64,000 nt of DNA from an uncultured Chloroflexia bacterium (GCA_963738925.1 CAVTYE010000001.1:770159-834158); one strand, 5' to 3'; positions 1,114-61,375 are shown, counted from the first letter of the stretch. The notes: generated by a model from the letters alone, not told the origin. Numbers and translations: made by a program.

Positions 1114-2133
1114 ATGGTCGCCAAATCCCGCGGCAAGTCTGGCTCCGGCGATAGCAGCGCCCCGGCAGAGTGGATCGAGACTGAGCTGCGCGAGACGAAG
1201 GGCCGCCTGCACAAGGTGGAGAGCGAATTGGCCCAGGCACTGAAGCAGACCTACGGCCTGGAAGCAGAGATGCGCAAGCTGATGGAGTCGCTAGCAGTAT
1301 CCGGCTCCGTCGAGGCGGCGCTGGGGTCTTTCCGCGAGGAAGTCCGGCAGCTGCGGGAGATGGCGAGCAGGCTCCAGGACCGCCAGGCCGCGGTGACTAC
1401 TCGCCTGGAGCAGGTCGCGAGCCAGCGGCAATCGGACAGCGGCCGCGACCGCCAGGAGATAGCACTCGCCGTCAAGCAGGTCGAAACCCTCAACCGGGTG
1501 ATCGAGCAGAACGACGGGCGCATGAAGACGCTGGAAGAGGCGGCGCGCCACCTGGAAGAGGAAGTCGCCGGCGCCCGCCTGGCGGACCAGTCCCTGGAGC
1601 GGACGCTGGAAGAGATCAACACGCGCACCGCCCGCCTCAACGAAGCGACCCTACGGCTCGATCACGAGTCCGGACGCGCCTCCGGCGAGCTGGCCCGGCT
1701 GGAGCAGACAAACGAGGCGCTGACCGACCGTCTCGGCGCTTTCCTGGAACAGCTGCGGCGGGCGCTGGAGCGCATGGACAAGCTGGAAACGCTCAGCACC
1801 TTCGCCGACGAGACACGCGAAGGCATGCAACGGGCTGCCGCAGAGCGCGACTCCATCGTGCAGAAGGTCGCGCACATGGAGCACCTGTGCAGCCAGCTAG
1901 CCGAGGCCAGCGCCGAGTTCGGGCAGACCCTGGCCAAGCTGGAGCAGCGGAGCCAGGCCCAGGGCGCCGAGATTCTGGCGCAGGCCGGCGGCCTCCAGGA
2001 CCTGACCGACCAGACCAAGGCCAGCATCAAAAAGATCTACACCACGCTCCTGCGCCAGGGCCGACGCCGCTCCGAGGCGCTGAACAACGAGATCAAGGAC
2101 CTGACCCAGGGTGAAGTCCACGCCAACGACTGA
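1114..2133 (+). CDS. coiled-coil protein of unknown function
   Basis: 339-aa ORF with heptad-like E/L/R/Q/A-rich composition. The ATG lies 3 nt after the hom stop and the 3' end overlaps the thrC start by 23 nt, consistent with translational coupling. Confidence 0.55.
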   Translation: MVAKSRGKSGSGDSSAPAEWIETELRETKGRLHKVESELAQALKQTYGLEAEMRKLMESLAVSGSVEAALGSFREEVRQLREMASRLQDRQAAVTTRLEQVASQRQSDSGRDRQEIALAVKQVETLNRVIEQNDGRMKTLEEAARHLEEEVAGARLADQSLERTLEEINTRTARLNEATLRLDHESGRASGELARLEQTNEALTDRLGAFLEQLRRALERMDKLETLSTFADETREGMQRAAAERDSIVQKVAHMEHLCSQLAEASAEFGQTLAKLEQRSQAQGAEILAQAGGLQDLTDQTKASIKKIYTTLLRQGRRRSEALNNEIKDLTQGEVHAND

Positions 2134-3187
2134 GCCAACCCGGCGCGGCGTCCTGCACCACTACCGCGAACGCCTGCCGGTAACCGACAAGACGCCGATG
2201 ATCTCGCTCGGCGAAGGGGACACGCCGCTTGTCCTCTCCCGGCGGCTGGTAGAACGCGTCGGTTGCCGCGAGCTCTGGTTCAAGCTGGAGCTGTGCAACC
2301 CCACCGGCTCCTTCAAGGACCGCGGCATGGTCGTCGCCGTCGCCAAGGCGGCAGAGGCCGGCGCCGAAAAAGTCCTCTGCGCCTCCACCGGCAACACCAG
2401 CGCCTCCGCCGCCGCCTACGCGGCCCACCTGGGAATCGAGGCCTATGTGCTGGTCCCCCACGGCCGCATCGCCCAGGGCAAGCTGGCCCAGGCGATCGCG
2501 CACGGAGCGCGGGTGATCGGCGTGCGCGGCAACTTCGACGAGGCGCTGAAGGTGGCGCGGCTGATCAGCGAGAGCCACCCGGTGGCGCTGGTCAACTCGA
2601 TCAACCCCAACCGCATCGAAGGCCAGAAGACCGCCGCCTTCGAGATCGCCGACGCGATGGGCGACGCGCCGGACGCCGTGTTCATCCCGGTCGGCAACGC
2701 GGGCAACATCACGGCCTACTGGCGCGGCTTCGTCGAGTACTACCAGGCCGAGATATCGACGAAAAAGCCGCGGATGATGGGCTGGCAGGCCGCGGGCGCC
2801 GCGCCGATCGTGCTGGGCCATCCAGTGGAGGACCCGCAGACCGTCGCCTCGGCGATCCGCATCGGCAACCCGGCCAGCTGGCGCTTCGCGGAGGCCGCCC
2901 GCGACGAGTCCGGTGGCGCGATCAACTCCGTGACTGACGAAGAGATCCTGGAGGCGTACCGCCTGCTGGCCCAGGAAGAGGGCATCTTCTGCGAGCCGGC
3001 GTCCGCCGCGTCGCTCGCCGGGCTAATCAAGCACGCCGCCACGAACAGCGTCGCCGACCAGCGCATCGTCTGCATCATCACCGGCCACGGTCTCAAGGAC
3101 CCGGAGACGGCGATGAAGATCGAAGCGAAGACATCCGAAGTTGACGCGGACCTCGCCGCCGTCGAAGCGGCAATGGGACTGGGCTAA
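2111..3187 (+). CDS. thrC: threonine synthase
   Basis: Colinear with short-form ThrC: HxYxExLPVTD N-terminus, PLP-lysine motif SFKDRG and GNTSAS motif. Confidence 0.9.
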   Translation: MKSTPTTEPTRRGVLHHYRERLPVTDKTPMISLGEGDTPLVLSRRLVERVGCRELWFKLELCNPTGSFKDRGMVVAVAKAAEAGAEKVLCASTGNTSASAAAYAAHLGIEAYVLVPHGRIAQGKLAQAIAHGARVIGVRGNFDEALKVARLISESHPVALVNSINPNRIEGQKTAAFEIADAMGDAPDAVFIPVGNAGNITAYWRGFVEYYQAEISTKKPRMMGWQAAGAAPIVLGHPVEDPQTVASAIRIGNPASWRFAEAARDESGGAINSVTDEEILEAYRLLAQEEGIFCEPASAASLAGLIKHAATNSVADQRIVCIITGHGLKDPETAMKIEAKTSEVDADLAAVEAAMGLG

Positions 3188-14626: not shown

Positions 14627-14705
14627 AGAATCTCCACAGTCATGGAATGTGCATAACAGCAGTTAGAAATGGATGCCGGGGCGGTCAGTAGCCTACTCTT
14701 GAACC

Positions 14706-16228: not shown

Positions 16229-16229
16229 C

Positions 16230-35104: not shown

Positions 35105-35310
35105 GATTATCTGAGAAACACATTAGTTGTGGGTTAAAGAGCGATGACTGGTTATTAACGCCAGGACCAGCATTCACCAGTTCTGCTGAGAATCTTTCCG
35201 GCTCACCGGCTCTGCCCCGGCGGAGCACGGGTTGTATGATTCAAGTATCGAAAAGCATAGATTCTGGCACGATAAACCCGCCGCTGGCTTCAGTCTCTTC
35301 GGAGGAAATC

Positions 35311-36564
35311 ATGAAGATAGCGTCTTTCGTACCATCCAGCACGAACTCATCCAGGGCGATCCTGATCATCGAGGTGGCCCTGGTCATCGCAGCGGCGGCC
35401 ATCTGGTGGACCTTCGGCAGCGCCGCCGCCCAGACCAACAGCCTGGGAGTTGACCACAACGGCGGCTCGCCGGACATCAACGCCGGCCCGGCGCTGGTGG
35501 CCCAGGGCGCTTTGACAACCGTCTCGATAGTCGCCGATCCGCCGGTACCCGGCCTCGGCGGCTGGACAGTGAACGTCTTCTACGACCCGGCGGTGGTCAC
35601 CCCCACAGGCTGCGCCACGGCCGGGGATAGCTCCTCCTGCAACACGGCGTTCCTGAGCAACGCGGTGCGATTTTCCGGGCTGAAGGTCGCCGGGCTGTTC
35701 AACCCGACGGACATCGCAGACATCACGTTCCAGGGGGTCGGCTCCGCCGGTCAGTGCAGCGACCTGCAGCCGGAGGCGGTGAGCTGGAACGACCCATCGG
35801 CTGTCAACCTGATCCGGCCGACGGTATCGCTGGGCCAGGTGTGCGTGACCTCTGCGCCGACGCCGACCGCGTCGCCGACCGCCTCACCAACAGCCTCTCC
35901 GACAGCTTCGCCGACCGCCTCTCCGACTGCCTCACCAACCGCCTCTCCGACCGCTTCGCCGACGCCGACTGCCTCGCCAACCGCCTCTCCGACAGCTTCG
36001 CCGACGCCAACTGCATCCCCCACTCCGACAGCCTCTCCAACGCCATCTCCAACGCCCACCGCCTCGCCGACACCTTCACCAACGCCGACAGCCTCGCCGA
36101 CGGCATCGCCAACGCCGACCGCCTCGCCCACGGCCTCTCCGACGCCGACGCCAACTCCGACGGTCAAAGAGACGCCGTCGCCGACCGACAAGCCGACGCC
36201 CACACCAACTCCCACGAAGACGCCCGCCGGCGAGTGCGACGGGCGGCCCGCCACGATCGTCGGCACCGAGAGGAGCGACTGGATCTGGGGCACGCGCGGC
36301 GATGACGTGATCCTGGCGCTCGGCGGCAACGACCTCGTCTTCGGCAACGGCGGCGACGACGTCATCTGCCTGGGTCCCGGCCACGACGCCGCCATCGGAG
36401 GCCGCGGCGACGATCGCATCTTTGGTGAGGAAGGCAACGACGTGCTCTGGGGCGGTGGCGGCTCGGACTACCTTGACGGCGGTCCCGGCTTCGACCTCTG
36501 CTTCGGCGGCTGGGGCCACGACACAAAGGTGAACTGCGGCTTCTACTTCCGCTGGTTCCGCTAG
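35311..36564 (+). CDS. secreted protein with cohesin-like domain, (T/P)ASP linker and RTX-type Ca-binding repeats
   Basis: Signal or TM anchor, then a beta-rich cohesin-like domain, ~100 aa of [10 protein letters not shown] repeats and GGxGxD repeats ([15 protein letters not shown]...[13 protein letters not shown]). ATG follows GGAGG. Confidence 0.6.
35870..36160 (+). repeat. in-frame tandem 12/18-bp repeat encoding the (T/P)ASP linker
   Basis: Near-identical units: gcctc(g/t)cc(g/a)ac(a/c)gcc, etc. Confidence 0.7.
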
Positions 36565-36984: not shown

Positions 36985-39523
<2,539 letters not shown>

Positions 39524-41787: not shown

Positions 41788-43173
41788 GTGAGACGCACCG
41801 CCGCAGTCGTCGCCGCCAAGACCGCCGCCGAGCTCAGCCGCCGCCTGCGCGTGGGTGGCGGCACGGCGCTGCCGGGCCTTGTCGCAGAGCGGCTGGACCC
41901 GGAGTTCGTCGTCGGGCTGGCCGGGCGGCTGGGGCTGGGCAGCGTCATCGTCACCGGCACCAACGGCAAGACGACCACCGCCCAGCTCGTGCGCAACATC
42001 TTCGCCGGGGCCGGGATGCGCCCGGTCGCCAACCGCGCCGGCTCCAACATGATGCGCGGCGTCGCCGCGGCCCTGGCCGAAGCGGCCGACTGGGACGGGC
42101 GCATGCGCTCCCGCAAGAAGCGGATCGGCGTCTTCGAGGTGGACGAGGCGACGATGCCCAAAGTTGCCGCCGCCGTGCGCCCCCGCGCCGTCGCCTTCAC
42201 GAACCTCTTCCGCGACCAGCTCGACCGCTACGGCGAAGTCGAGACCGTGGCCGCGATCTGGCGGGAGGCCGTCGCCTCTTTTCCGGACGACGTCACGCTG
42301 GTCCTCAACGCCGACGACCCGACCGTGGCCTCGCTGAGAGACTGCGCCCGCGGCCCGGTCGTGCTCTTCGGCATCGAGGATGCTTCGCAGGCCACCAGCG
42401 AGATCGACCACGCCGCCGACGCCCGCTGGTGTCCCCGCTGCGGAGTTGAACTGGAGTACACGGCCGTCTTTTACGGACACCTCGGTCACTGGTCCTGTCC
42501 GTCCTGTGGCAACTCCCGGCCCGCGCCGGACATCGCCTGCACGGGCATCGCGCCGGGCGAGGGCGGGCTCGCGCTGACGATCCGCGTCCCGGCCGGCTCG
42601 CTGGATGTCCAGACGAACTTCGCTGGCACTTATAACGTCTACAACGCGCTGGCCGCGGCGGCGCTGGCGGGTGCGGTGGGAGTCGCTCCGGCGGTCATCG
42701 GCGAAGGGATCGCGGCCTCGGCGGCGGTCTTCGGGCGCCAGGAAGTCTTCACCATCGACGGGCGCCGGGTTCAGTTGACGCTGGCCAAGAACCCGGCCGG
42801 CCTCAACCAGGTGCTGCGCCTGCTGCCGGGCGCCGATCTGGACCTGGCCGTGTTCCTGAACGACGACATCGCCGACGGGCGCGACATCTCCTGGATCTGG
42901 GACGCCGACTTCGAGCTGCTGGCCGGGCGCGTGCGCTCGCTCACCGTCTCCGGCCGCCGCGCGTGGGACATGGCGCTGCGCCTGAAGTACGCCGGAATCG
43001 AGGCCAGGCCCAACGTTGAGCCGGACACGGCGCTGGCGCTGCGGGAGGCCGTGCGCAGCGTCCCGGAAGGTGGCGCGCTGTACGTGATCCCCACCTATAC
43101 GGCGATGCTGGAGGTGCGGAACATCCTGGGCAAGTGGGCCGGGCGCGGCCGCTTCTGGGAGGGCCAGCGATGA
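41788..43173 (+). CDS. murT: lipid II isoglutaminyl synthase, ligase subunit MurT
   Basis: Mur-ligase central domain (TGTNGKTTT), a Cys4 zinc ribbon (CPRCG...CPSCG) and a DUF1727 C-terminus. Confidence 0.8.
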   Translation: MRRTAAVVAAKTAAELSRRLRVGGGTALPGLVAERLDPEFVVGLAGRLGLGSVIVTGTNGKTTTAQLVRNIFAGAGMRPVANRAGSNMMRGVAAALAEAADWDGRMRSRKKRIGVFEVDEATMPKVAAAVRPRAVAFTNLFRDQLDRYGEVETVAAIWREAVASFPDDVTLVLNADDPTVASLRDCARGPVVLFGIEDASQATSEIDHAADARWCPRCGVELEYTAVFYGHLGHWSCPSCGNSRPAPDIACTGIAPGEGGLALTIRVPAGSLDVQTNFAGTYNVYNALAAAALAGAVGVAPAVIGEGIAASAAVFGRQEVFTIDGRRVQLTLAKNPAGLNQVLRLLPGADLDLAVFLNDDIADGRDISWIWDADFELLAGRVRSLTVSGRRAWDMALRLKYAGIEARPNVEPDTALALREAVRSVPEGGALYVIPTYTAMLEVRNILGKWAGRGRFWEGQR

Positions 43174-49296: not shown

Positions 49297-49363
49297 GCCG
49301 CCGCGCCGCCGTCACCTTGACCCCTTTTTCCCTATCTGATAGCATCCTGTTCAACTGAATACG

Positions 49364-49482
49364 GACCCTTATCCAGAGAGGTGGAGGGCGACGGCCCTGT
49401 GAAGCCCGGCAACCGGTCCAGTTTTACGAAATGGGACACGGTGCCAATGCCGTCCCCCGCAGCGCGGGGGGACGATAAGGCA
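49364..49482 (+). ncRNA. SAM-I (S-box) riboswitch
   Basis: P1 CCCTTATC...GATAAGG. Conserved core AGAGAGGTGGAGGGCGACGGCCCTGTGAAGCCCGGCAACC. P3/P4 segments GGTGCCAATGCCGTCCCCCGCAGCGCGGGGGGAC. Confidence 0.8.
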
Positions 49483-49490
49483 AAACGCAT

Positions 49491-49523
49491 CCTCTTCTGG
49501 CAAATTCGGAAGAGGCTTTTTTT
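49491..49523 (+). terminator. riboswitch expression-platform terminator
   Basis: CCTCTTC-N11-GAAGAGG followed by TTTTTTT. Confidence 0.75.
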
Positions 49524-49629
49524 ATGCCACAACTCAACCAGGCAAGAATGGCGATGGCACGGGCCTCCGCTCGCAAGGGCGGGAGGCCCCGCCAGCAGCT
49601 CTGATTTCAACAACCGGAGGTAAGCCATC

Positions 49630-50910
49630 GTGCCTGTCCTTAGTCCAGACGAAAGATCGTTCGCCAAGCACCTCAGATGCAGGGAGTGCGGCCGCACCTA
49701 CGAGCTGACGCCCTCCAACGTCTGCGAGTACTGCTTCGGCCCGCTGGAAGTCTTCTACGACTACGAAGCGCTGAAGGGCCACCTGACGCGGAGGCGCATC
49801 GAAGGCGGCCCGCCGACGATGTGGCGCTACGCCCCGCTATTGCCCGTCGATGCCGCCACGGCAGTCGACATCGGCACCGGCTACACGCCGCTCTTGCGGG
49901 CGCCGAACCTGGGCCGGGCGCTTGGGCTGAGCCGCCTGTACATCAAGAACGACTGCCAGAACCCCACCTGGTCGTTCAAAGACCGCGTCGTTTCCGTGGC
50001 CAGCAGCGTCGCCCGCGCCTTCGAGTTCGATACGCTGGCCTGCGCCTCCACAGGCAATCTGGCCAACAGCGTCGCCGCCCACGCCGCCCGCGCCGGCATG
50101 CGCGCCTGCGTCTTCATCCCCTCTGACCTGGAGCAGGGCAAGATCATCGGCTCAGCGGTCTATAACCCGACGCTGGTCGCCGTCGACGGCAGCTACGACG
50201 ACGTCAACCGCCTCTGCAGCGAACTCGGCGACAAGTACCCCTGGGCCTTCGTCAACATCAACGTCCGCCCCTACTACGCCGAGGGCAGCAAGACCCTGGC
50301 CTACGAGGTCTGCGAGCAACTGGGCTGGCGCGCCCCGGACCACTGCATAGCGCCGATGGCCAGCGGATCGCTCTTCACCAAGATCTACAAGGGGATCAAG
50401 GAGCTGTCCTGGCTGGGCCTGATCGATTGGAACGGGACGCGGATGAGCGGAGCCCAGGCGCTGGGCTGCTCGCCGATCGCCGAGGCCTGGGGCCGCGGCA
50501 GCATGAACATCCGGCCGCAGAAGCCGAAGACGATCGCCAAGTCTCTGGCCATCGGCAACCCGGCCGACGGATACTACGCTCTGAAGATCATGAACGAGAC
50601 GAACGGAGCCGCCGCCGCCGTCACCGACGACGAGGTGATCGAAGGGATCAAGCTCCTGGCCGAGACCGAGGGCATCTTCGCTGAGACAGCGGGCGGCGTC
50701 GTCATCTCCGGGCTGCGGCAGCTGATCCGCGAAGGCAAAGTCGGCGCTGACGAAGTCGTCGTCGCCTTCATCACCGGCGCCGGACTAAAGACGCAGGAGG
50801 CCGTGGCGCCCGCGCTGCAACCGCCGCTGCAGGTCCAGGCCACCATCGAATCGTTCGAGCACGAGCTGGAAGAGCGCGAAGGCGGCCTTCCGCTGGCGAA
50901 GGCGGTGTAG
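49630..50910 (+). CDS. threonine-synthase-like PLP enzyme with N-terminal zinc ribbon (MetM-like homocysteine synthase candidate)
   Basis: CxxC-x13-CxxC ribbon, then a ThrC-fold with PLP lysine WSFKDR. A second thrC paralog in the window. GTG start 9 nt after GGAGG. Confidence 0.7.
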   Translation: MPVLSPDERSFAKHLRCRECGRTYELTPSNVCEYCFGPLEVFYDYEALKGHLTRRRIEGGPPTMWRYAPLLPVDAATAVDIGTGYTPLLRAPNLGRALGLSRLYIKNDCQNPTWSFKDRVVSVASSVARAFEFDTLACASTGNLANSVAAHAARAGMRACVFIPSDLEQGKIIGSAVYNPTLVAVDGSYDDVNRLCSELGDKYPWAFVNINVRPYYAEGSKTLAYEVCEQLGWRAPDHCIAPMASGSLFTKIYKGIKELSWLGLIDWNGTRMSGAQALGCSPIAEAWGRGSMNIRPQKPKTIAKSLAIGNPADGYYALKIMNETNGAAAAVTDDEVIEGIKLLAETEGIFAETAGGVVISGLRQLIREGKVGADEVVVAFITGAGLKTQEAVAPALQPPLQVQATIESFEHELEEREGGLPLAKAV

Positions 50911-50911
50911 C

Positions 50912-51154
50912 ATGGAGAGCCTGCGCGTAAAGTTCACATTCGTCGAAGATCTGATCAAGGAGCCGATCATCTGGAAGCTGGCCAAGGAGTTCGACGTCGT
51001 CACCAACATCCGCCGCGCCGACGTCACCGACGAACGCGGCTGGGTGGTCCTGGAGCTGGACGGTGACCGCGAAGAGATCGAACGCGGTTTGGAGTGGGTG
51101 CGCCAGAACGGCGTCCGCGTCGACCCGGTATACGAAGACATCGTGGAAGGTTAG
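50912..51154 (+). CDS. stand-alone NIL-domain protein
   Basis: 80 aa alignable to the MetN C-terminal NIL domain, including the N-I-x-x-A core (VVTNIRRA), a G-x-hydrophobic-ELDG segment and C-terminal V+V. Confidence 0.5.
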   Translation: MESLRVKFTFVEDLIKEPIIWKLAKEFDVVTNIRRADVTDERGWVVLELDGDREEIERGLEWVRQNGVRVDPVYEDIVEG

Positions 51155-51157
51155 GTC

Positions 51158-51433
51158 ATGGCCATAAACGTACGCATCCCGACGCCGCTGCGGAAGCTGA
51201 CCAGGGAAAAGGACATCGTTCAGGGCAGCGGCGATACCCTCGGCGAAGTGATCGAGACGCTGGAGGCGGAGTTTCCCGGCCTCAAGGACCGCCTCTGTGA
51301 CGAAACTGGCGAGCTGCGCCGCTTCGTCAACGTCTACGTGAACGGCGAAGACGTGCGGTTCCAGGACGGCCTCTCCACGCGCCTCACCGGCAACGACGAG
51401 GTCAGCATCGTCCCGGCCGTCGCCGGGGGCTAG
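51158..51433 (+). CDS. CysO/MoaD/ThiS-family sulfur carrier protein (MetO-like)
   Basis: 91 aa ending VPAVAGG. Core RFVNVYVNGEDVRF is like M. tuberculosis CysO. Confidence 0.75.
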   Translation: MAINVRIPTPLRKLTREKDIVQGSGDTLGEVIETLEAEFPGLKDRLCDETGELRRFVNVYVNGEDVRFQDGLSTRLTGNDEVSIVPAVAGG

Positions 51434-51435
51434 CG

Positions 51436-51942
51436 ATGGAAGAGCGGCTCAAGCACTGGAGACTCGCCCCCGGGGGTTACCACGCGCTCCTCGGCGTTGA
51501 CCGCTACGTCTACGACAGCGGCCTCGAACACTCGCTGCTGGAGCTGGTCAAGCTGCGCGCTTCACAGATCAACGGCTGCGCCTACTGCATCGACATGCAC
51601 TGGAAGGACGCCCGCGCCGGCGGGGAGACAGAGCAGCGCCTCTACTCGCTCAACGCCTGGCGGGAAGCGCCGTTCTACACGGACCGTGAGCGCGCCGCCC
51701 TGGACTGGACGGAGGCGCTGACCCTGATCTCGGAGACCCACGCCCCGGACGAGACGTACGCCGCGGTCCGGGCCCAGTTCAGCGAGAAGGAGACCGTCGA
51801 TCTCTCGCTGGCCATCGCCATGATCAACGCCTGGAACCGGATGAGCATCTCCATGCGCGCCCCTGAGGCCGGCATCTACGACCCCAGCCGCCGCAAGCAG
51901 GCCCCATCAGCGGCCCCGGCAAAGGCGTTGGGTGGCGACTGA
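51436..51942 (+). CDS. carboxymuconolactone decarboxylase (AhpD-like) family protein
   Basis: CxxC-H motif GCAYCIDMH. Confidence 0.75.
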   Translation: MEERLKHWRLAPGGYHALLGVDRYVYDSGLEHSLLELVKLRASQINGCAYCIDMHWKDARAGGETEQRLYSLNAWREAPFYTDRERAALDWTEALTLISETHAPDETYAAVRAQFSEKETVDLSLAIAMINAWNRMSISMRAPEAGIYDPSRRKQAPSAAPAKALGGD

Positions 51943-52063: not shown

Positions 52064-52312
52064 ATGCAAGACCCGGCGCTGGCCTTCATCCTTGAAGAGG
52101 CCCTGGCGCTGCTCGACGCCGGCGAAGCACCGGAGTCGATCATCGAACGCTTCCCGGAGGCGGCGGCGAAACTGAGGCCACTGCTCGATCTCGCCGGCAC
52201 CCTCAAGGAGACCGCCGAAGACGCGATCGAGGTGCCCATGGAAGCGCTGGAGGAGATCGGGGACTTTCTCCAGGAGCACTTTGACGAAGTGCTCGAACAT
52301 CGCACAGACTAG
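52064..52312 (+). CDS. small acidic hypothetical protein
   Basis: 82-aa ORF, codon usage consistent with the surrounding genes. No motif. Confidence 0.3.
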   Translation: MQDPALAFILEEALALLDAGEAPESIIERFPEAAAKLRPLLDLAGTLKETAEDAIEVPMEALEEIGDFLQEHFDEVLEHRTD

Positions 52313-52317
52313 GCGGC

Positions 52318-52812
52318 ATGGACCGCGTCGCAATCCAGGACCTCTACGACTATAACGGCTTCGCCTGGGAGCAGATCGCCGGAACCATCGCCGAAGCAGG
52401 CGAAGAGATCCTCGCCAGGAAAGTCCGGGGCTCCGGCTGGCCCGCCCTGGGTGATTGCCTGGCCCACATGGGTTTCGCCTACGACGTCTGGGTGACGAGG
52501 CTCAACGGCGCCGAGATGCTGGAGTTTCCCAAAGACCCCTCGTGGCCCCAGATCCAGGCCTACTGGCAGACCGTGCGTGAGCGCTTCAAGTCATACCTGG
52601 ACAGCTTGAGCGACGAACAGCTCCACACCGTGCGCGACATCGATGCTTTCGGCGGCACGCTGCGCTATCCGCCGGCCGACATCCTGGCCAACGTCGTCAC
52701 GCACGACGTTGCGCACCTGGGCGACGTGTCCACGCTTCTCTACCAGATGGGGCTGGAGATGCCTTCCGTGGCGTATCGGTTTTACACGGAGGCCAAATAT
52801 GAGTATTCTTGA
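52318..52812 (+). CDS. DinB-family (DUF664-like) protein
   Basis: 164 aa with DinB_2-type conserved His residues. Confidence 0.5.
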   Translation: MDRVAIQDLYDYNGFAWEQIAGTIAEAGEEILARKVRGSGWPALGDCLAHMGFAYDVWVTRLNGAEMLEFPKDPSWPQIQAYWQTVRERFKSYLDSLSDEQLHTVRDIDAFGGTLRYPPADILANVVTHDVAHLGDVSTLLYQMGLEMPSVAYRFYTEAKYEYS

Positions 52813-52838
52813 CGCGAAGCGGCTTATCAACATACAAT
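52809..52838 (+). promoter_or_regulatory. sigma70-like promoter TTGACG-N18-TACAAT upstream of the sulfite reductase gene
   Basis: A near-consensus -35/-10 pair in an otherwise high-GC genome, 43 bp upstream of the sir ATG. Confidence 0.35.
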
Positions 52839-52880: not shown

Positions 52881-54704
52881 ATGACTGTTCAAGAGAAACC
52901 CTTCACCTTCGACGCTCACCCCAAGGTACCGGTGGACCTGCGGCCCGGCCGCATCTTCGTCACCCTTGACGAAGAGATCGACAACTACGAGATCGAAGCG
53001 GACCGCTACCGCGCCAACCGCGAAGAGCTGGAGGGCGAGTTCACCCCGTTCCGCCTGCGCATGGGCACCTACGGCCAGCGCCAGATGGACCAGCAGATGA
53101 TGCGGATCAAGCTCCCCTACGGCGGCATCGACGCCGACCAGATGGACGTTATGGCCGAGATCGCCGAGAAGTACTCCGGCCTCCGCCGCGGCCACATCAC
53201 CACCAGGGAGAACATCCAGTTTCACTTTGTCGACCTGATCAAGGCCGGCGACGTCATGCGCCTGCTCACCGGCGTTGGCCTGACCACGCGCGAGGCCTGC
53301 GGGCACACCGTCCGCAACGTCACGGCCTGCCCCTACGCCGGCGTCTCCGACCACGAGCTGTTCGACGTGACGCCGTACCTGGCGGCCTACGCCCGCAACA
53401 TGCTGCGCAACCCGATCTGCCAGAACATGCCGCGCAAGTGGAAGACCTCGTTCTCCTGTGGCCCGGTGGACTGCGCCGGCAGCCTCTTCCACGACATGGG
53501 CTTCGTCGCCGCCGTCAAGACCGAGGGCGGCAAGGAAGTCCGCGGCTTCAAGATGGTGGTTGGCGGCGGCACCTCCACGATGGCGCGCAAGGCTGAGACC
53601 CTCTACGAATTCGTAACCGCCGACGACGGACGCTACATCCGCGTCGCCGAAGCCGCACTCAAGGTGTTCGACAAGGAGGGTGGCTTCCCGCAGCTCCTGC
53701 GCAAAAACATGAACAAGGCGCGCGTCAAGTTCCTGGTCCAGAAGATCGGCATCGAAGAGTTCCGCCGCCAGGTCGAAGAAGAGCTGGCCGAGCCCTGGGC
53801 CGACGAGCCCCTGGACATGCACGCCCTGATGCAGCTGGCCCCGGAAGGCCCCACCCCCGGCGAAGCGCCCAACGGCATCCGCCCGGGCCCCGACTTCGAC
53901 CGCTGGGTCAAGACGAACGTCATCAAGCAGCGCCAGCCCGGCTACGTCGCCGTCACGATCACGGTGCCGATGGGCAACCTCTCCCCGGAGCAGTTCCGCG
54001 GTCTCGCCACGCTGATGCGGCGCTTCGCCGGCGGCAACGCCCGGACCCAGCAGAACCAGAACCTGGTCCTCCGCTGGGTGCGAGAAGAGGGGCTGCCTGC
54101 GCTCCACGCCGGCCTCAAGGAGCAGGGCCTCGGCGCGGCCGACGCCGGCTTCATCGCCGATACTGTCGCCTGCCCGGGCACAGACTCCTGCAAGATGGGC
54201 ATCACCTCCTCCCAGGGAGTCGGCTACGCGATCCGCGAGGCCGTCGAAACCTGGGGCTACGACGACGACCAGCTCGTCCAGAACATCAACATCAAGGCCA
54301 GCGGCTGCCCCAACGGCTGCGCCCAGCACCACCTGGCGGCGATCGGCCTGCAGGGCTCATCGTTCACCGCCAACGGCACCTCGATCCCCTGCTTCGATAT
54401 CTCGCTGGGCGGCGGCAACTACAACACGGAGGGCGGCGGCAAGTTCGGCGTCCGCGTCGCCCGCGTCCCTTCCAAGCGCGCACCGCTGGCGATCAAGAAG
54501 CTGATCGATCACTACGTAGCCAACCGCGAAAACGGCGAAGAGTTCGTGGCTTTCGTGGACCGCGTCGGCGCCAAGACGCTCGACCCGCTACTGGACGAGT
54601 TCAAGGAAGTCGGCCCGATCCACGAGGACATCCAGATGTACATGGACTGGGGCAAGGAAGAGCTCTTCGAGGTGGTCCGCGGCGAAGGCGAGTGCTCGGT
54701 CTAA
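52881..54704 (+). CDS. sir: assimilatory sulfite reductase (ferredoxin-dependent, siroheme/4Fe-4S hemoprotein)
   Basis: 607-aa monomeric NiR/SiR-type protein with a Cys cluster (CGHT...C...C). Confidence 0.85.
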   Translation: MTVQEKPFTFDAHPKVPVDLRPGRIFVTLDEEIDNYEIEADRYRANREELEGEFTPFRLRMGTYGQRQMDQQMMRIKLPYGGIDADQMDVMAEIAEKYSGLRRGHITTRENIQFHFVDLIKAGDVMRLLTGVGLTTREACGHTVRNVTACPYAGVSDHELFDVTPYLAAYARNMLRNPICQNMPRKWKTSFSCGPVDCAGSLFHDMGFVAAVKTEGGKEVRGFKMVVGGGTSTMARKAETLYEFVTADDGRYIRVAEAALKVFDKEGGFPQLLRKNMNKARVKFLVQKIGIEEFRRQVEEELAEPWADEPLDMHALMQLAPEGPTPGEAPNGIRPGPDFDRWVKTNVIKQRQPGYVAVTITVPMGNLSPEQFRGLATLMRRFAGGNARTQQNQNLVLRWVREEGLPALHAGLKEQGLGAADAGFIADTVACPGTDSCKMGITSSQGVGYAIREAVETWGYDDDQLVQNINIKASGCPNGCAQHHLAAIGLQGSSFTANGTSIPCFDISLGGGNYNTEGGGKFGVRVARVPSKRAPLAIKKLIDHYVANRENGEEFVAFVDRVGAKTLDPLLDEFKEVGPIHEDIQMYMDWGKEELFEVVRGEGECSV

Positions 54705-54793
54705 ATATGAGATGCGAGGTGTGAAAGCCCCGCGCCGCCCTGCGATGACCGGCGACCAAACAAGCAATAAATATCGGGAGGACAAACAAGGAA

Positions 54794-55516
54794 ATGAAGG
54801 AAGCAGTTAAGTACACGGCTGCGGACGTCGATGCGCTGAACGCTGAGCTGGGCGGCAAGTCGGCCGAAGAGATCGTCCGCTGGGCCGGGCAGGCTTTCGG
54901 GTCAGACATCAAGTTCGCCAACAGCTTCGGGGCGGAAGACGTCGTGATGATGGACATCATCGCGCGCATCTCCCCGAACATCCGCGTCTTCACCCTGGAC
55001 ACCGGCCGCCTCAACGACGAGACCTACGAGGTGATGGAGGCGACGCGGTTCAAGTACCCGGACATCAAGATCGAAGTCATGTTCCCGGACGCCGCCAAGG
55101 TCGAAGGGCTGACCCGCGAGAAGGGCTTCTTCTCCTTCCGCGACAGCGTTGAGTTGCGCAAGGAGTGCTGCGCCATCCGCAAGGTGCAACCGCTAAAGCG
55201 CGCCCTGTCCGACGCCAGCTCCTGGATGACCGGCCTGCGGCGAGATCAGTCCGTCACCCGCACCGACACCCCGGCCATCGAGTGGGACGAGGGCAACGGC
55301 ATGGTGAAGGTGAACCCGATCATCGAGTGGTCCAACGACGACGTCTGGGCCTACATCAAGACGAACAAGATCCCCTACAACAAGCTGCACGACAAGGGCT
55401 TCCCCAGCATCGGCTGCGCACCCTGCACCCGCGCCATCAAGCCCGGCGAGGACATCCGCGCCGGGCGCTGGTGGTGGGAGAACCCAGAGTTCAAGGAGTG
55501 CGGTCTGCACGAGTAG
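54794..55516 (+). CDS. cysH: adenylyl-sulfate (APS) reductase, Fe-S type CysH
   Basis: PAPS-reductase fold with CC...CxxC cluster ligands ([13 protein letters not shown]), indicating an APS-utilising enzyme. Confidence 0.85.
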
Positions 55517-55595
55517 CCCAAGCGTTTCAAGTCAACGAACGCATGTAGAGACGCCCCCCGGGGCGTCTCTATGGCGTAACTGGAATGGACAACAC

Positions 55596-56783
55596 ATGAC
55601 ACCCGGTGAAACAAATCCTGCCCACGGCGGGCGCCTGATCGACCTGGTGGCCGGCGGCAGCGAGGCGCAGGCCCTGCGCGAGCAGACGGCGAAGATGCCC
55701 GCCGTCACGCTCAACTCGCGGACGCTGTCAGACCTGGAGCTCCTGGCCGTCGGCGGCTACAGCCCGCTGGAAGGCTTCATGACCCAGGCCGACTACCGCG
55801 CCGTCGTCGATGGCATGCACCTGGCGGACGGGCTGCCCTGGTCGATGCCGATCACCCTCGCCGTCAGCGACGAAGAGGCGCAGTCGATCAGCGAGGGCGA
55901 CGACATCGCCCTAGCCGATGAGACCGGCCGCATCCTGGCCTCGATGCACGTGCGTGAGAAGTTCGGCTACGACAAGCGAGTCGAGGCGGAGAACGTCTAC
56001 CGCACCGAAGACGAAAAGCACCCCGGCGTGGCCGCCCTCTACGCGCAGGGCGACGTCCTGCTCGGCGGGCCGGTGCGGGTGCTGGAAGTCCCGGGGCACG
56101 ACGACTTCCCGGAATACCGGCTGACCCCGGCGCAGACCCGGGCCGCCTTCGCTGAGCGCGGCTGGCGCACGATCGTCGGCTTCCAGACGCGGAACCCCGT
56201 GCACCGCGCCCACGAGTACATCCAGAAGGCGGCGATGGAGATCGTCGACGGCCTGCTGCTGCACCCGCTGGTCGGCGACACCAAGTCCGACGACATCCCC
56301 GCCGACGTGCGGATGCGCTGCTACGAGGTCCTGATCGAGAACTACTACCCGGCCGGCCGCGTCGTCCTCTCCGTGAACCCGGCGGCGATGCGCTACGCCG
56401 GCCCACGCGAGGCGATCTTCCACGCGCTGGTGCGCAAGAACTTCGGCTGCACCCACTTCATCGTTGGCCGTGACCACGCCGGCGTCGGCAACTACTACGG
56501 GACCTTCGATGCCCAGCTCATCTTCAACGAGTTCGATTCCCAGGCGCTGGGCATCGTGCCGCTGATGTTCGAGCACTCCTTCTACTGCAAGAAATGCGAC
56601 GGGCTGGCCAGCGTCAAGACCTGCCCCCACGACGCCGAGTCCCGCGTCAGCCTCTCCGGCACCCAGGTGCGCGACATGCTGAAAGGCGGGATCGCGCCGC
56701 CGCCGGAGTTCTCGCGCCCGGAAGTAGCCGAAGTGCTGATCAAGGCGATGCAGGACCACGCGACGCCGCACCATGCGATCTGA
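55596..56783 (+). CDS. sat: sulfate adenylyltransferase (ATP sulfurylase)
   Basis: QTRN and GRDHAG motifs. Confidence 0.9.
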
Positions 56784-56843: not shown

Positions 56844-57287
56844 ATGAAAGTATCGACAAAGGGTGACTACGGCATCCGCGCTCTGATTGAGCTGGCGCAC
56901 CACTACGGTGAGGTCCGGCCGACTCAGAGCAGCGAGATCGCTGCGCGCCAGAAAGTGCCGGAATCGTACCTGGAGCAGCTGCTGACGACGCTGCGCCGGG
57001 CCGGCTTCATTCGCAGCGTGCGCGGCCCCCAGGGCGGCCACGCCCTGGTCCGCGACCCGCGTGACCTGCGTGTCTCCGAGGTGATCGAGGCGCTGGAGGG
57101 GCCGATCATGCCCAGCGATTGCCTGGACGACGGCGGCGCCTGCGCCAAGGGGGGCGGCTGCGCCCAATCGGACATGTGGGCCTCCGTCCGCGAAGCGATC
57201 CTCGGCGTCCTGGACACGACAACCATCGCCGACCTGGCAGCACTGGACCGGGCGGCCCAACCAGTCGGCGCCCGGTACAACATTTAG
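56844..57287 (+). CDS. Rrf2-family transcriptional regulator (IscR/CymR-like, three-Cys type)
   Basis: N-terminal HTH (KGDYGIRALIELA...) and a C-terminal C-x6-C-x5-C cluster. Confidence 0.8.
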   Translation: MKVSTKGDYGIRALIELAHHYGEVRPTQSSEIAARQKVPESYLEQLLTTLRRAGFIRSVRGPQGGHALVRDPRDLRVSEVIEALEGPIMPSDCLDDGGACAKGGGCAQSDMWASVREAILGVLDTTTIADLAALDRAAQPVGARYNI

Positions 57288-57296
57288 GAGCAAAGA

Positions 57297-58220
57297 ATGG
57301 GCCAGAAGATAGCAGACAGCGTCCTCGACCTCGTCGGCAAGACGCCGATGGTCCGCCTCAGGCGGATCGTCCCGGCCGGATCGGCGGAAGTCCTGGGCAA
57401 GATGGAGTCGTTGAACCCGGCGGGCAGCGTCAAGGACCGCATCGCCCTCAACATGATCGAAGCGGCGGAGCGCGAAGGAAAGCTGAAGCCCGGCGACACG
57501 ATCATTGAGCCGACCAGCGGCAACACCGGCATCGGCCTGGCCATGGTCGCCGCCGTTAAAGGCTACAAGCTGGTCGTGACGATGCCGGAAGACATGAGCC
57601 TGGCCCGGCGCGACCTCCTGGCCCGCTACGGCGCCGAAGTCGTCCTGACGCCGGCGATCGAAGGCATGACCGGCGCCGTCTACGCAGCGCAGGAGCTGAT
57701 CGCCAAGAACAGCCAGCTACTTCATGTGCCAGCAGTTCGAAAACGCCGCCAACCCGGATATCCACCGACGCACAACCGCGCTCGGAGATCCTGGAGGCGA
57801 CCGAGGGCCGCCTCGACGCGTTCGTCGCCGGCGTCGGCACCGGCGGCACGATCACCGGCGTCGGCGAGGTGCTGCGCGAAAAGCTCGGCGCCGCGCTGCT
57901 GATCGTCGCGGTGGAGCCCTCGCGTTCGCCGGTCCTGGAAGGCGGCCGCGCCGGGGTCCACGCGATCCAGGGCATCGGCGCCAGCTTCGTGCCGGGCGTG
58001 CTGAACCGCGAGGTCTACAACGAGATCATCGCCGTCACCGACGAGGACGCGATCGAGATTTCGCGCCGGCTCTGTCGAGAGGAGGGGATGCTGGTCGGCA
58101 TCTCCGCCGGGGCCAACGTCTGGGCGGCCGATCAAAGTGGCCAAGCGCCTGGGCGCCGGCAAGCGCGTCGTGACTGTGCTTCGCGATACCGGTGAGCGAT
58201 ACTTGCAGATGGAGTCCTAA
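57297..58220 (+). pseudogene. cysK: cysteine synthase A (O-acetylserine sulfhydrylase), three +1 frameshifts in this sequence
   Basis: PLP lysine SVKDR, then in three further frames [24 protein letters not shown] and IKVAKRLGAGKRVVTVLRDTGERYLQMES. Each shift is a single inserted base. Confidence 0.8.
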
Positions 58221-58253
58221 AGTGCTGTCTGGATACAAAGATGAAAGTTAGCT

Positions 58254-59350
58254 GTGTACATCCCGACACCCTTCCGCCGCTTCGCGGGCAACCAGACCCG
58301 CGTCCACACGGAGGGCAACACCGTCGGCGAAGTGCTGGACCGGCTGGGCCAGGACTACCCTTCGCTGCGCAACATGATCTACGACGAGAAAGACGAGATC
58401 CCGGGCCACATCAACATCTACCTCAACAACACCGAGATCCACACGCTCCAGGGCAAGGCCACCATCGTCCACGACGGCGACGAGATGGCCGTGATCCCGG
58501 CCATCGCCGGCGGCGCCACGGCCCTGACCCCCGACCAGGTGGAGCGCTACTCGCGGCACATCATCATGCCGCAGGTCGGCCCTTCCGGGCAGCGCAAGCT
58601 GATGGAGGCGAAGGTGCTGATCGTCGGCGCGGGCGGCCTCGGCGGGCCGGCGGCGCTGTACCTGGCGCTGGCCGGCGTCGGCACCATCGGCATCGTCGAC
58701 TTCGACACCGTCGACCTCTCCAACCTGCAGCGGCAGGTGCTGCACCAGACCGCCGACGTCGGCAAGTCCAAGGCTCAGTCGGCCAAGGAGACCCTGAACG
58801 CCTACAACCCGGACGTCAAGGTGGTGCTGCACGAGACGCCGCTCACCTCCGACAACGCGATGGAGATCATCCCCCAGTACGACATCGTCGTGAACGGCGC
58901 CGACAACTTCACCACCCGCTACCTGGTCAACGACGCCGCGTACTTCGCCGGCAAGACGCTGGTGGACGGCAGCATCCTCCTCTTCGACGGGCAGGCCACG
59001 GTGTTCATGCCCGGCAAGGGCTGCTACCGCTGCCTCTTCCCCGCGCCGCCGCCGCCCGGCCTGGTGCCGAGCTGCGCCGAGGCCGGCGTCCTCGGCGCTC
59101 TGACCGGCATCATGGGCTCGATCCAGGCGACCGAGGCGATCAAGCATGATCCTGGAGATCGGCGAGCCGCTGGTCGGCCGCCTGCTCCTGGTCGATGCGC
59201 TGACGATGGAGTTCCGCGTCGTCAAGCTGCGGCGCGACCCGAAGTGCCCGCTCTGCGGCGACGACCCCGACGATCGAAGAGCTGATCGACTACGAAGGCT
59301 TCTGCGGTTCCCCGTTTCCCGGCGGCCACGAGGAACGGAGCCCAGCAGTC
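58254..59350 (+). pseudogene. moeZ: CysO/MoaD-like sulfur carrier fused to MoeB/MoeZ-type E1 adenylyltransferase, at least one frameshift near 59145. 3' end uncertain.
   Basis: N-terminal 87 aa ending AIAGG with HINIYLN. Continuous with RYSRHIIMPQVG and GAGGLGGP, then the CxxC...CPLCGDDP zinc motif in the next frame. No rhodanese domain. Confidence 0.6.
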
Positions 59351-59626
59351 ATGAGCATCAAAGTCAGCGTCACCGGCAGCATGCAGAAGGCGATCGGCGG
59401 CCAGAAGTCCGATCGAGGCGGAGGGCAGCACTGTCGCTCGCCGTCCTCGACGACGTCGATGCCAGGCATCCCGGCTTCAAGGACCTGGTGATGACGGAGG
59501 GCCGGCATCCATCGCTTCGTCAACATCTACCTGAACGATGAGGACGTCCGCTTCCTGGGCCAGCTCGACACCAAGCTGAAGGACGGCGACGTCCTCTCCG
59601 TCCTGCCCGCGCTCGCCGGCGGCTAG
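59351..59626 (+). pseudogene. cysO: sulfur carrier protein CysO, three +1 frameshifts in this sequence
   Basis: Conceptual repair gives MSIKVSVTGSMQKAIGGQKSIEAEGSTV-LAVLDDVDARHPGFKDLVMTEGR-IHRFVNIYLNDEDVRFLGQLDTKLKDGDVLSVLPALAGG, near-colinear with M. tuberculosis CysO. GGAGGAACGGAG RBS upstream. Confidence 0.7.
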
Positions 59627-59635
59627 CGAGACCCG

Positions 59636-60576
59636 ATGCTCGCTGAATCCATCCTCGATACGATCGGCAATACGCCGCTCGTCAAGCTGGCCAAGTTCAG
59701 CCCCAAGCCCGAGCGTCAACATCTACGCCAAGCTCGAGGGGCAGAACCCCACCGGCAGCGTCAAGGACCGCATCGCTGCTCTACATGATCCGCACGGCCG
59801 AGGCCAGCGGCGAGCTGACGCCCGACAAGACGGTGCTCGAGCCAACCAGCGGCAATACCGGCATCAGCCTGGCGATGGTCTGCCGGGCCAAGGGCTACCG
59901 GCTGGTCTGCGTCCTCCCAGACAACGTCACTGCCGAGCGCGAGTCGCTGTTGCGGGCCTTCGGCGCAGAGGTCGTCTACGCGGAGAACGCCACCAGCACC
60001 AACGACGCCGTCTTCAAGGCGCAGCGGATGCTGGCGGAGGACCCCGGCGCCTACTTCATGCCCTACCAGTACGGCAACGAGAACAACCCCCGCGCCCACT
60101 ACGAGACGACCGGCCCCGAGATCCTGCGCGACCTGCCGGAGATCGACATCTTCGTGGCCGGCCTGGGCACAGGTGGCACTTTGACCGGATGCGGCCACTT
60201 CCTGAAGGACAACCGGCCCGGCGTCAAGATCATCGCGGCGGTGCCCCACCCGGGCGACCTCGTGAGGGGCTGCGCGCTGTCGAGGAAGGGTTCATCCCGC
60301 CGGTGCTCGACGAGTCTGTGCTGGACGGCCGCATCGTCGTCGATTCGCTGGCGGCGTTTCGCGATGGCCAAAGAAGTGATGGAGAAAGAAGCGGTCTTCA
60401 CCGGCATCTCCGCCGGCGCGGTGCTGACCGTCGCCGTCCGCGCCGCCGAACGGCTGGAGCGCGGCAACGTCGTGGCGCTGCTGGCCGACGGCGGCTGGAA
60501 GTACCTCTCTACGGGTCTCTGGAGCCGCGACTACGGCGAGTCCCCGGAAGAGACGCAGGGCAAGATCTGGTGGTGA
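59636..60576 (+). pseudogene. cysM: CysM-type cysteine synthase (O-phosphoserine/CysO-thiocarboxylate dependent), about four indels in this sequence
   Basis: Segments [41 protein letters not shown]...EPTSGNTG and GLGTGGTLTG lie in alternating frames. Confidence 0.75.
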
Positions 60577-60982: not shown

Positions 60983-61375
60983 ATGCGCCTGCCCCAGGAC
61001 TTCGTCGACGAGATGGTGGCCCACGCCGTGGAGGACGCCCCCAACGAGTGCTGCGGCATCATCGCCGGCAAGGACGGCGCGGCGACCAAGCTCTACCGCG
61101 CGCGCAACTCGGAGGCCAGCCCCTACCGCTACAGCGTCGACCCCAAGGACCTGCTCCGCATCTTCCACGAGTGTGAGGACAACGACTGGTCGTTCCTGGC
61201 GATCTACCACTCCCACACCGCCAGCGAAGCCTACCCCTCCGGCACCGACGTCCGCCTGGCGTTCTGGCCGGAGGCCCGCTACGTCCTGGTCTCGCTGGCC
61301 CAGGAGAAGCCGGTTGTGCGCGCCTTCCGCATCGAAGAAGGCACCGTCACCGAAGAACCGATCGAGACGGCGTAG
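60983..61375 (+). CDS. mec: JAMM/MPN+ metalloprotease (Mec+-like CysO-cysteine peptidase)
   Basis: JAMM motif E...HSHTASEAYPSGTD plus the CCGII pattern. Confidence 0.8.
   Translation: MRLPQDFVDEMVAHAVEDAPNECCGIIAGKDGAATKLYRARNSEASPYRYSVDPKDLLRIFHECEDNDWSFLAIYHSHTASEAYPSGTDVRLAFWPEARYVLVSLAQEKPVVRAFRIEEGTVTEEPIETA

Follow-up and report, generated by a model that had tools for sequence, protein, structure and literature searches.

In a 64,000-nt stretch of DNA from an uncultured Chloroflexia bacterium (GCA_963738925.1, CAVTYE010000001.1:770159-834158; hereafter the window, with positions counted from its first nucleotide), an S-adenosylmethionine (SAM) riboswitch precedes four genes on the plus strand (+), which encode a ThrC-like enzyme of the MetM type, a stand-alone NIL-domain protein, a MetO/CysO-type sulfur carrier and an AhpD-like protein. 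We consider it reasonably likely that these form a SAM-repressed metM-nil-metO-ahpD-like operon that makes homocysteine by way of a protein thiocarboxylate, with NIL as a methionine-sensing regulator or adaptor. The components of this reading carry different weights. It is very probable that NIL is a dedicated functional partner of the system and no chance neighbour, and we are almost as confident of the assignment to a MetM/MetO-type pathway, which is predicted from sequence comparison. A methionine-sensing role of NIL, suggested by a modelled fold, is possible rather than probable.

Riboswitch, MetM-type enzyme and MetO-type carrier each belong to a kind already known. NIL as a free-standing partner and the fused families treated below, carrier-NIL and JAB-NIL, have no description in the accessible literature, a body of text that does not extend to the original MetM/MetO paper. 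The first-pass annotation of this DNA, made from the sequence alone, had likewise stated that such a NIL partner is not known from any described system, and the GapMind component list for the pathway agrees, as it names MetO, Mec, MoeZ and MetM and omits NIL (10.1101/2024.10.14.618325).

Riboswitch, enzyme and carrier

The SAM-I aptamer (49366..49481, +) matched Rfam family RF00162 over the full model (1-108), so that the four-helix aptamer is covered in full, and scored 79.9 bits (E = 3.4e-17), where the gathering score is 44.4. It was the single RNA family matched by Rfam in the 64-kb window. An intrinsic terminator follows as the expression platform (49491..49525, +), consisting of a hairpin with a 10-bp stem (49491-49515), which has CTTTTTTT directly 3', the whole element being recorded as this stem and then CTTTTTTTAT. 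The score and the hairpin with its T-run bear out the earlier claim of a SAM-I aptamer with its own terminator directly 5' of the operon. In structure prediction, the 5' half of the hairpin, CCUCUUCUGG, pairs with CCAGAGAGG of the aptamer once the 3' half of the hairpin is omitted, and the mutually exclusive terminator and antiterminator pairings so modelled are the usual S-box competition.

Upstream of the aptamer, a consensus scan picked out a promoter-like site (49317..49345, +; TTGACC, 17 nt, TAGCAT, with TG), which is a pattern match only. Downstream of the terminator, the ribosome-binding site (RBS) GGAGG (49616-49620) lies about 100 nt away, followed by the GTG start at 49630. Folding of 49531-49632 by RNAfold gave a GC-rich hairpin between terminator and RBS (49561..49589, +) and a predicted outer helix (49552-49558 / 49624-49630) that overlaps the start codon of the enzyme. 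This modelled hairpin and helix might add control at the level of translation to that of the riboswitch, or else affect RNA stability.

The four open reading frames (ORFs) after the riboswitch are all intact and are separated by gaps of 1, 3 and 2 nt, a spacing that points to a single transcription unit. The G+C content of the window is 67%, and that of third codon positions (GC3) in the coding frames is about 0.9.

The first gene encodes the MetM-type ThrC-like enzyme, a pyridoxal phosphate (PLP) enzyme of 426 aa (49630..50910, +) with an N-terminal CxxC...CxxC, which scored 230 bits with PF00291 and 275 bits with TIGR00260. Its Cys4 motif, C17xxC20...C32xxC35, lies within an N-terminal segment of about 60 aa that solved threonine synthases lack, their alignment to the enzyme starting at residue ~61. 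The catalytic-lysine motif SFKDR is present in the enzyme and in 74 of 75 relatives. An ordinary threonine synthase of 358 aa without the Cys motif (2111..3187, +; TIGR00260, 316 bits) is encoded elsewhere in the window, two genes 3' of a homoserine dehydrogenase gene (2-1111), and is 33% identical to the ThrC-like enzyme. The proposal of a second ThrC paralog carrying an N-terminal Cys4 motif was thus correct.

We distinguished MetM from ThrC by pairwise identities and domain architecture. The NF006050 match begins at profile position 3-7 in the clade of the ThrC-like enzyme and at position 53 in true ThrC. Carrier-linked homologs from Nonomuraea, Limnocylindrales, Thermodesulfobacteriota and other contigs show 52-61% identity to the window's enzyme; when that enzyme is compared together with the homologs from Limnocylindrales, Thermodesulfobacteriota and two further contigs, pairwise identities range over 52-75%. 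CREC...CxxC occurs in all the carrier-linked homologs, whose identity to true ThrC of the window is just 33-38%. On these comparisons, the Cys4-bearing ThrC-like proteins beside CysO-type carriers group as a coherent clade distinct from housekeeping ThrC.

The closest counterpart of the arrangement was found in the 11.85-Mb record of Nonomuraea gerenzanensis, where a homolog 53% identical to the ThrC-like enzyme, with the same CRECG...CxxC motif, has a SAM-I riboswitch (68.7 bits) directly 5' and a 91-aa GG-ended carrier, 51% identical to the window's, 25 nt 3'. This riboswitch-linked, Cys4-bearing pair supports the first-pass view of a MetM/MetO-type route on the methionine side under SAM control. 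The same layout is reported for Streptomyces albulus, where MetM, a ThrC homolog, forms homocysteine from O-phosphohomoserine and the thiocarboxylate of MetO; MoeZ and Mec assist, and a SAM riboswitch lies upstream of the genes (PMC12172450; 10.1101/2024.10.14.618325). The ThrC-like protein of the window is by its sequence a predicted carrier-thiocarboxylate-dependent homocysteine synthase acting on O-phosphohomoserine.

The MetO/CysO-type sulfur carrier (91 aa; 51158..51433, +) is a ThiS-family beta-grasp domain (PF02597, 69 bits) whose C-terminus reads ...PAVAGG directly before the stop codon. Among solved structures, M. tuberculosis CysO (3dwg_C, 6e-24) matches it best, in keeping with the initial description of a CysO/MoaD-type carrier ending in GG.

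The last gene encodes a protein of the AhpD/CMD family (168 aa; 51436..51942, +; PF02627, 77 bits; TIGR00778, 61 bits). The family assignment of the first-pass annotation stands; the literal CxxCH motif given there does not, the active site reading C48-A-Y-C51-I-D-M-H55, that is CxxCxxxH. We consider a putative thiol-disulfide (redox-repair) role plausible.

The NIL protein, its synteny and its fusions

Between enzyme and carrier lies the gene for an 80-aa stand-alone NIL-domain protein (50912..51154, +), which was recognised as such at first reading and matches PF09383 at 61 bits against a cut-off of 24. The protein has no cysteine and no ferredoxin domain. It is free-standing, without an ABC ATPase, and the MetN model TIGR02314 gave it just 19 bits against a cut-off of 500. 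We rejected NIL as a handler of persulfide or thiocarboxylate sulfur, since the family has no conserved cysteine.

Homologs of the window's NIL are numerous. A 90%-clustered collection contained 2,759 at E <= 1e-3, and among the best 120 of these, all with 78% identity or more, the length is about 80 aa in every case but one (140 aa). An exhaustive search of 50%-identity representatives gave 900 matches, 224 of them at E <= 1e-10 and most about 80 aa long. A motif scan with a 12-sequence NIL alignment, taking one genome per species, found a close relative in at least 600 species genomes.

We then examined gene order in the best 80 NIL loci, all from Chloroflexota/Dehalococcoidia metagenome-assembled genomes (MAGs). 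A MetM-type gene lies immediately 5' of NIL on the same strand in all 75 loci that have upstream sequence, with the Cys4 motif in 74 of them, and a CysO-like carrier follows 3' in 76 of the 80. The median gaps are 25 nt from enzyme to NIL and 70 nt from NIL to carrier. A census of gene families showed that enzyme, NIL and carrier are the only conserved genes, the other neighbours differing by lineage (TGT, AroK/B, a TauE-type permease, FBPase or, in the window's own group, sulfate genes). The co-occurrence of NIL, MetM and MetO, named at first reading as a point to check, thus holds in essentially all Chloroflexota loci examined.

The AhpD-like gene was found in just five of the 80 distinct loci (L004, L005, L007, L012 and L013), all close relatives of the window. 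In two soil Chloroflexota MAGs (apparently L012 and L013), the carrier is fused through its GG and an 8-aa linker to the AhpD-like domain. These fusions tie the AhpD-like protein functionally to the carrier, and its presence in so few loci indicates that it is not a core component.

For the riboswitch, we surveyed the region 5' of the ThrC-like gene in the relatives with a profile built from six confirmed aptamers. A SAM-I aptamer precedes the enzyme in 18 distinct loci and is absent from 55 loci with enough upstream sequence; Rfam was concordant for the 15 loci scanned directly. Among the aptamer-bearing loci are all those with an enzyme that has 79% identity or more to the window's, and three further loci make up the rest. 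The riboswitch is a lineage-specific addition. Of the operon as first described, enzyme, NIL and carrier therefore proved conserved; the AhpD-like gene and the riboswitch are features of certain lineages.

In Nonomuraea, NIL was found neither at the metM-metO locus nor, by tblastn, anywhere in the 11.85-Mb record; tblastn against plasmid records also gave no match, and this is informative only as a negative for the Nonomuraea record. The near-constant pairing in Chloroflexota and the lack of NIL in Nonomuraea agree with the suggestion that NIL is an extra component, absent from the precedent.

The AlphaFold2 model of NIL (mean predicted local distance difference test, pLDDT, 82.6) has a beta-alpha-beta-beta-alpha-beta, ACT-like fold with a disordered tail. 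Its top 11 fold matches in the PDB are MetN C2/NIL domains (template-modelling score, TM, 0.71-0.80), and the ligand-binding ACT domains of PGDH and SerB come lower in the list. A phmmer alignment to the C2 domain of E. coli MetN, at about 20% sequence identity, places N32 on N295 and A36 on A299. In MetN, the bound methionine hydrogen-bonds N295 across the C2 dimer, L-Met is no longer bound after the N295A substitution, and A299 takes part in pairing across the dimer sheet (PMC6233128). The equivalents of this Asn and Ala are invariant in alignments of stand-alone and fused NILs (A2, A3 and A4); the Asn is substituted in a minority of sequences of the most diverse alignment (A1). Tandem NIL-NIL proteins of 142-179 aa also exist (P0121, P0126, P0131 and P0158) and fit a dimer as the working unit. 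In another homocysteine-forming system, the archaeal L-ASST, the NIL domain has been proposed to mediate inhibition by methionine (PMC12068725).

Stand-alone NILs share a conserved, disordered acidic tail, ...[VI]EG, in which E79 is invariant and residues 76-80 have pLDDT <50. The idea that the terminal Gly marks a second carrier is unsupported, as a C-terminus of ...VIE or ...VVE is common in the wider family.

NIL also occurs in fused form. Among the NIL representatives, we found six carrier-NIL clusters, two JAB-NIL clusters, one NIL-GNAT (P0204) and one PALP-NIL; the last (P0142), with an Arg-rich junction and then 'MMASRP...', was rejected as a read-through artefact. Fusions of a CysO-type carrier to NIL comprise at least 119 clusters, with NIL placed behind the Gly-Gly of the carrier, and in the best 120 matches both domains are present in all but one shortened entry. 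The Gly-Gly at the junction is invariant in the alignment, and a regular expression found AGG in 114 of the 119 entries long enough to test. In an AlphaFold2 model of such a fusion, two confident domains are joined at residues 88-91 (IAGG), and it is exactly there that pLDDT drops under 50; with a predicted TM score of just 0.52, this points to a flexible, exposed junction.

The fused forms belong to lineages such as Thermodesulfobacteriota and Limnocylindrales. Three carrier-NIL fusions of different lineages lie 3' of a MetM-type gene; in L083 and in L085/L086 the two are direct neighbours, and in L084 the distance is two genes. JAB, ThiF, TusA, rhodanese or Rrf2 genes are found near these fusions. 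Short ThiS-type-NIL fusions were seen immediately 5' of a MetM-type gene, in the order JAB, ThiF, CysK/M-type PALP, ThiS-NIL, MetM-type enzyme, carrier, with a second JAB gene in L088 and L089. A metagenome scan with the JAB-NIL fusion returned a single locus, L087 (4374-7710, 41% G+C), which encodes Rrf2, a CysK/M-type synthase, a PAPS reductase, a 95-aa CysO-like carrier that extends about 4 residues past its GG, and JAB-NIL.

Adenylation of a carrier needs a free Gly-Gly carboxylate, so the carrier-NIL fusions imply cleavage after Gly-Gly, a known type of activity of JAB/Mec-like proteases. Routine trimming would also suit the Chloroflexota carriers, of which about 35 of 76 run on for 1-19 residues beyond GG.

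The predicted homocysteine route and its alternatives

In the scheme that we propose, the aptamer with SAM bound would retain the bases that otherwise pair with the 5' half of the terminator, the terminator would form and transcription would stop. ATP sulfurylase, adenosine phosphosulfate (APS) reductase and sulfite reductase, all encoded 3' of the operon, would supply sulfide and are the likely source for carrier thiocarboxylation. A ThiF-type E1 enzyme would adenylate the C-terminal Gly-Gly of the carrier, and sulfide would turn it into the thiocarboxylate. The MetM-type enzyme would eliminate phosphate from O-phosphohomoserine and add the carrier thiocarboxylate at the gamma carbon, and homocysteine would then be released, possibly with the help of a JAB protease. 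NIL, with its ACT-like MetN C2 fold, is probably a dimeric small subunit that would bind methionine (or homocysteine) and act at the carrier-enzyme step, either as a fast feedback control or as an adaptor, as a complement to the slower transcriptional control by SAM. In lineages with carrier-GG-NIL, the JAB protease would have to cut NIL off before the carrier is activated.

We suggest tentatively, and with more doubt than confidence, that pathways with ubiquitin-like sulfur carriers could use NIL as a small subunit gated by methionine, of a class not recognised before, often in the form of a removable C-terminal carrier cap released by JAB, with its ligand state (methionine or homocysteine) controlling carrier maturation and/or the MetM step. 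The window would then hold the 'split' form of the carrier-GG-NIL arrangement, which is analogous to eukaryotic ubiquitin-fusion precursors.

The main rival to a sensor is a structural adaptor or chaperone, which would dock the carrier or its thiocarboxylate tail onto the enzyme and/or JAB and, in fused forms, merely cap the carrier C-terminus until processing. Such a role is favoured by the fusions, which join NIL to a carrier in at least 119 clusters and to a JAB protease in two clusters, and by the conserved acidic tail with its invariant E79. At L087, the carrier is present and no ThrC-like gene lies within 7 kb; NIL there tracks the carrier/JAB machinery, which an adaptor fits at least as well as a methionine sensor. 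On the other side, the equivalents of the methionine contact N295 and the dimer-strand residue A299 are invariant, all characterised NIL contexts are tied to methionine or homocysteine, and the actinomycete system apparently functions without NIL, which makes NIL dispensable for the core chemistry. We therefore rate the adaptor alone as unlikely and favour the sensor, and the two roles are compatible with each other.

The assignment of the enzyme itself was weighed in the same way. If the ThrC-like protein were a genuine, possibly moonlighting, threonine synthase/deaminase, the operon would be no homocysteine route. Its 275 bits exceed the curated TIGR00260 threonine synthase cut-off of 167, and a Microcystis MetM homolog (51.6% identity), also beside a metO-like gene, acts as threonine synthase and deaminase in vitro (PMC12172450). 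Against this stand the SAM riboswitch here, in 18 related loci and in Nonomuraea, the coupling of the enzyme to a GG-ended sulfur carrier, and the separate canonical ThrC encoded by homoserine dehydrogenase in the same window; moreover, MetM is routinely misannotated in this way, according to GapMind (10.1101/2024.10.14.618325). We regard a threonine synthase as very unlikely. Less likely still is a module for another sulfur compound, for instance cysteine from O-phosphoserine or a thio-cofactor. The carrier is closest to CysO, a carrier of cysteine synthesis, and the island is otherwise given to cysteine and sulfate assimilation; on the other side, a distinct CysO/CysM/CysK module already lies 3' of the operon, SAM riboswitches govern methionine and SAM genes, and the enzyme is no CysM-type protein but shows the ThrC fold, for which O-phosphohomoserine is the known substrate.

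Besides the enzyme score, the Microcystis activity and the L087 locus, several further points weigh against a homocysteine operon with a methionine sensor. The 80 loci were picked by similarity to the window's NIL, so the MetM-NIL pairing is counted from the NIL side, and the occurrence of TNIRRA in 80/80 loci is circular because this was the search pattern. Kinship to S. albulus MetM was judged through the Nonomuraea proxy (53% identity, same riboswitch-metM-metO layout), and to our knowledge the biochemistry of the MetM-type clade is confined to Streptomyces. A homoserine kinase was not recognised among the window ORFs scanned, and the E1 gene and the second CysO/CysM module are frame-disrupted in the assembly.

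Compared with known systems, the window shares with S. albulus MetM/MetO a ThrC-homologous PLP enzyme, a GG carrier and an upstream SAM riboswitch, and it has candidates for the auxiliary E1 (MoeZ-like) and JAB (Mec-like) functions. Unlike that system, it has the 80-aa NIL gene between enzyme and carrier and an AhpD-like gene after the carrier, its candidate E1 is a ThiS-ThiF fusion without a detected rhodanese domain, and the operon lies within a sulfate-reduction island. The NIL protein belongs to the same Pfam family as the MetNI importer's C2 domain and keeps the predicted fold (TM up to 0.80) and the Asn and Ala; unlike MetN, to which its identity is about 20%, NIL is free-standing here, or elsewhere fused to a sulfur carrier or JAB, and is not the C-terminus of an ABC ATPase. 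As in the archaeal/Desulfovibrio L-ASST (DUF39/COG1900 with NIL-ferredoxin, MA1821/MA1822), NIL is attached to a homocysteine-forming system (PMC5764234, PMC12068725). In contrast to L-ASST, which uses aspartate semialdehyde and sulfide, the substrates proposed here are O-phosphohomoserine and a protein thiocarboxylate, the window's NIL lacks both ferredoxin and cysteine, and DUF39 is absent from the operon and was not found among the approximately 50 window ORFs scanned.

Two further protein-thiocarboxylate systems are CysO-CysM-Mec+ of M. tuberculosis, the source of the closest solved carrier, and HcyS-HcyF-HcyD-MetY of Wolinella, reportedly described by Krishnamoorthy and Begley in 2011. 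Both combine a ubiquitin-like carrier ending in GG with an adenylating E1 and a JAMM protease, for the last two of which the window has candidates. Clustering with sulfite reductase and, in many relatives, carriers that need C-terminal trimming are likenesses to these two systems; unlike them, the condensing enzyme here is of ThrC fold, neither CysM nor MetY, and neither of those systems is known to contain a NIL protein.

The MetM/MetO route was first described in 2024, by Hasebe et al., and MetM still bears the annotation 'threonine synthase' in most genomes (10.1101/2024.10.14.618325). Over much of the Chloroflexota, the route has as its standard form a three-component version of enzyme, NIL and carrier, and this bears on predictions of methionine prototrophy for abundant uncultured bacteria of soil, groundwater and sea. 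The NIL domain gains a concrete setting beyond ABC transporters, and the carrier-NIL precursor family implies protease-dependent maturation of a prokaryotic ubiquitin-like protein. Should the methionine-gated cap be real, thiocarboxylate-dependent homocysteine synthesis would have feedback at the protein level; and if NIL is a methionine sensor, one small domain would curb MetNI import as well as two unrelated homocysteine routes, L-ASST and MetM/MetO.

The sulfur island and the rest of the window

Downstream of the operon, we found complete sulfate-reduction genes, an E1 gene, a second CysO/CysM-type module and a JAB protease gene, all additions to what the first-pass annotation had described. 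Profile matches identified sulfite reductase (52881-54704, +), APS/PAPS reductase (54794-55516, +) and ATP sulfurylase (55596-56783, +), and this sulfate-assimilation block (52881..56783) is kept 3' of the operon in closer relatives. Promoter-like hexamer pairs cluster at 52781-52838, just 5' of sulfite reductase (the best being TTGACG, 18 nt, TACAAT), which suggests that the block is transcribed apart from the riboswitch operon.

An Rrf2/CymR-like regulator (56844..57287, +; profile match) and a CysK-type cysteine synthase (57297..58195, +) come next; the latter is spread over at least three reading frames in the assembly and is intact in L009 and L045. The gene at 58254..59285 (+) encodes a carrier-E1 fusion of ThiS and ThiF type (PF02597 and PF00899; MoeB/MoeZ models), in which we detected no rhodanese domain and whose C-terminal ~45 aa are out of frame in the assembly. 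The fusion is genuine, because its intact relatives (L009, about 15650-16240; L045, 10202-11371) read straight through from ...AIAGG and a linker into ThiF. Since the Gly-Gly of the fused ThiS is internal, it too would need proteolytic release, or would act in cis. By its sequence, ThiS-ThiF is a candidate E1 adenylating enzyme for the carriers.

A second CysO-like carrier (about 59351-59623, +; frame-disrupted) and a CysM-type PALP (about 59640-60576, +; frame shift near the 5' end) follow, and then a JAB/JAMM protease of Mec- or desampylase-like type (60983..61375, +; PF14464, 86 bits; NF041370). As judged from its family, the protease is a candidate that may free the amino acid from its carrier or trim carriers. 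Elsewhere in the window, a P-type ATPase (36985-39523) is split into two ORFs. The frame breaks there and at 57297-60576 suggest indel errors of the assembly or gene decay; relatives (L009, L045) have intact versions.

At the start of the window, the homoserine dehydrogenase carries an ACT domain and is followed by a 339-aa coiled-coil ORF and then thrC. We tried this ORF (1114-2133) as a non-canonical homoserine kinase (HomK) and rejected it, as it has no Pfam match and weak coiled-coil/SMC-like matches. Three stretches of 650-930 nt (13935-14705, 42201-43133 and 35105-35753) have no high-GC3 ORF in a window that is otherwise densely coded, and Rfam at its gathering threshold gave no match in any of them. 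Between the operon and sulfite reductase (52064-52812) lie genes for an 82-aa protein without a family match and a DinB-family protein, and the 82-aa protein is kept at the same position in closer relatives, at 39-78% identity.

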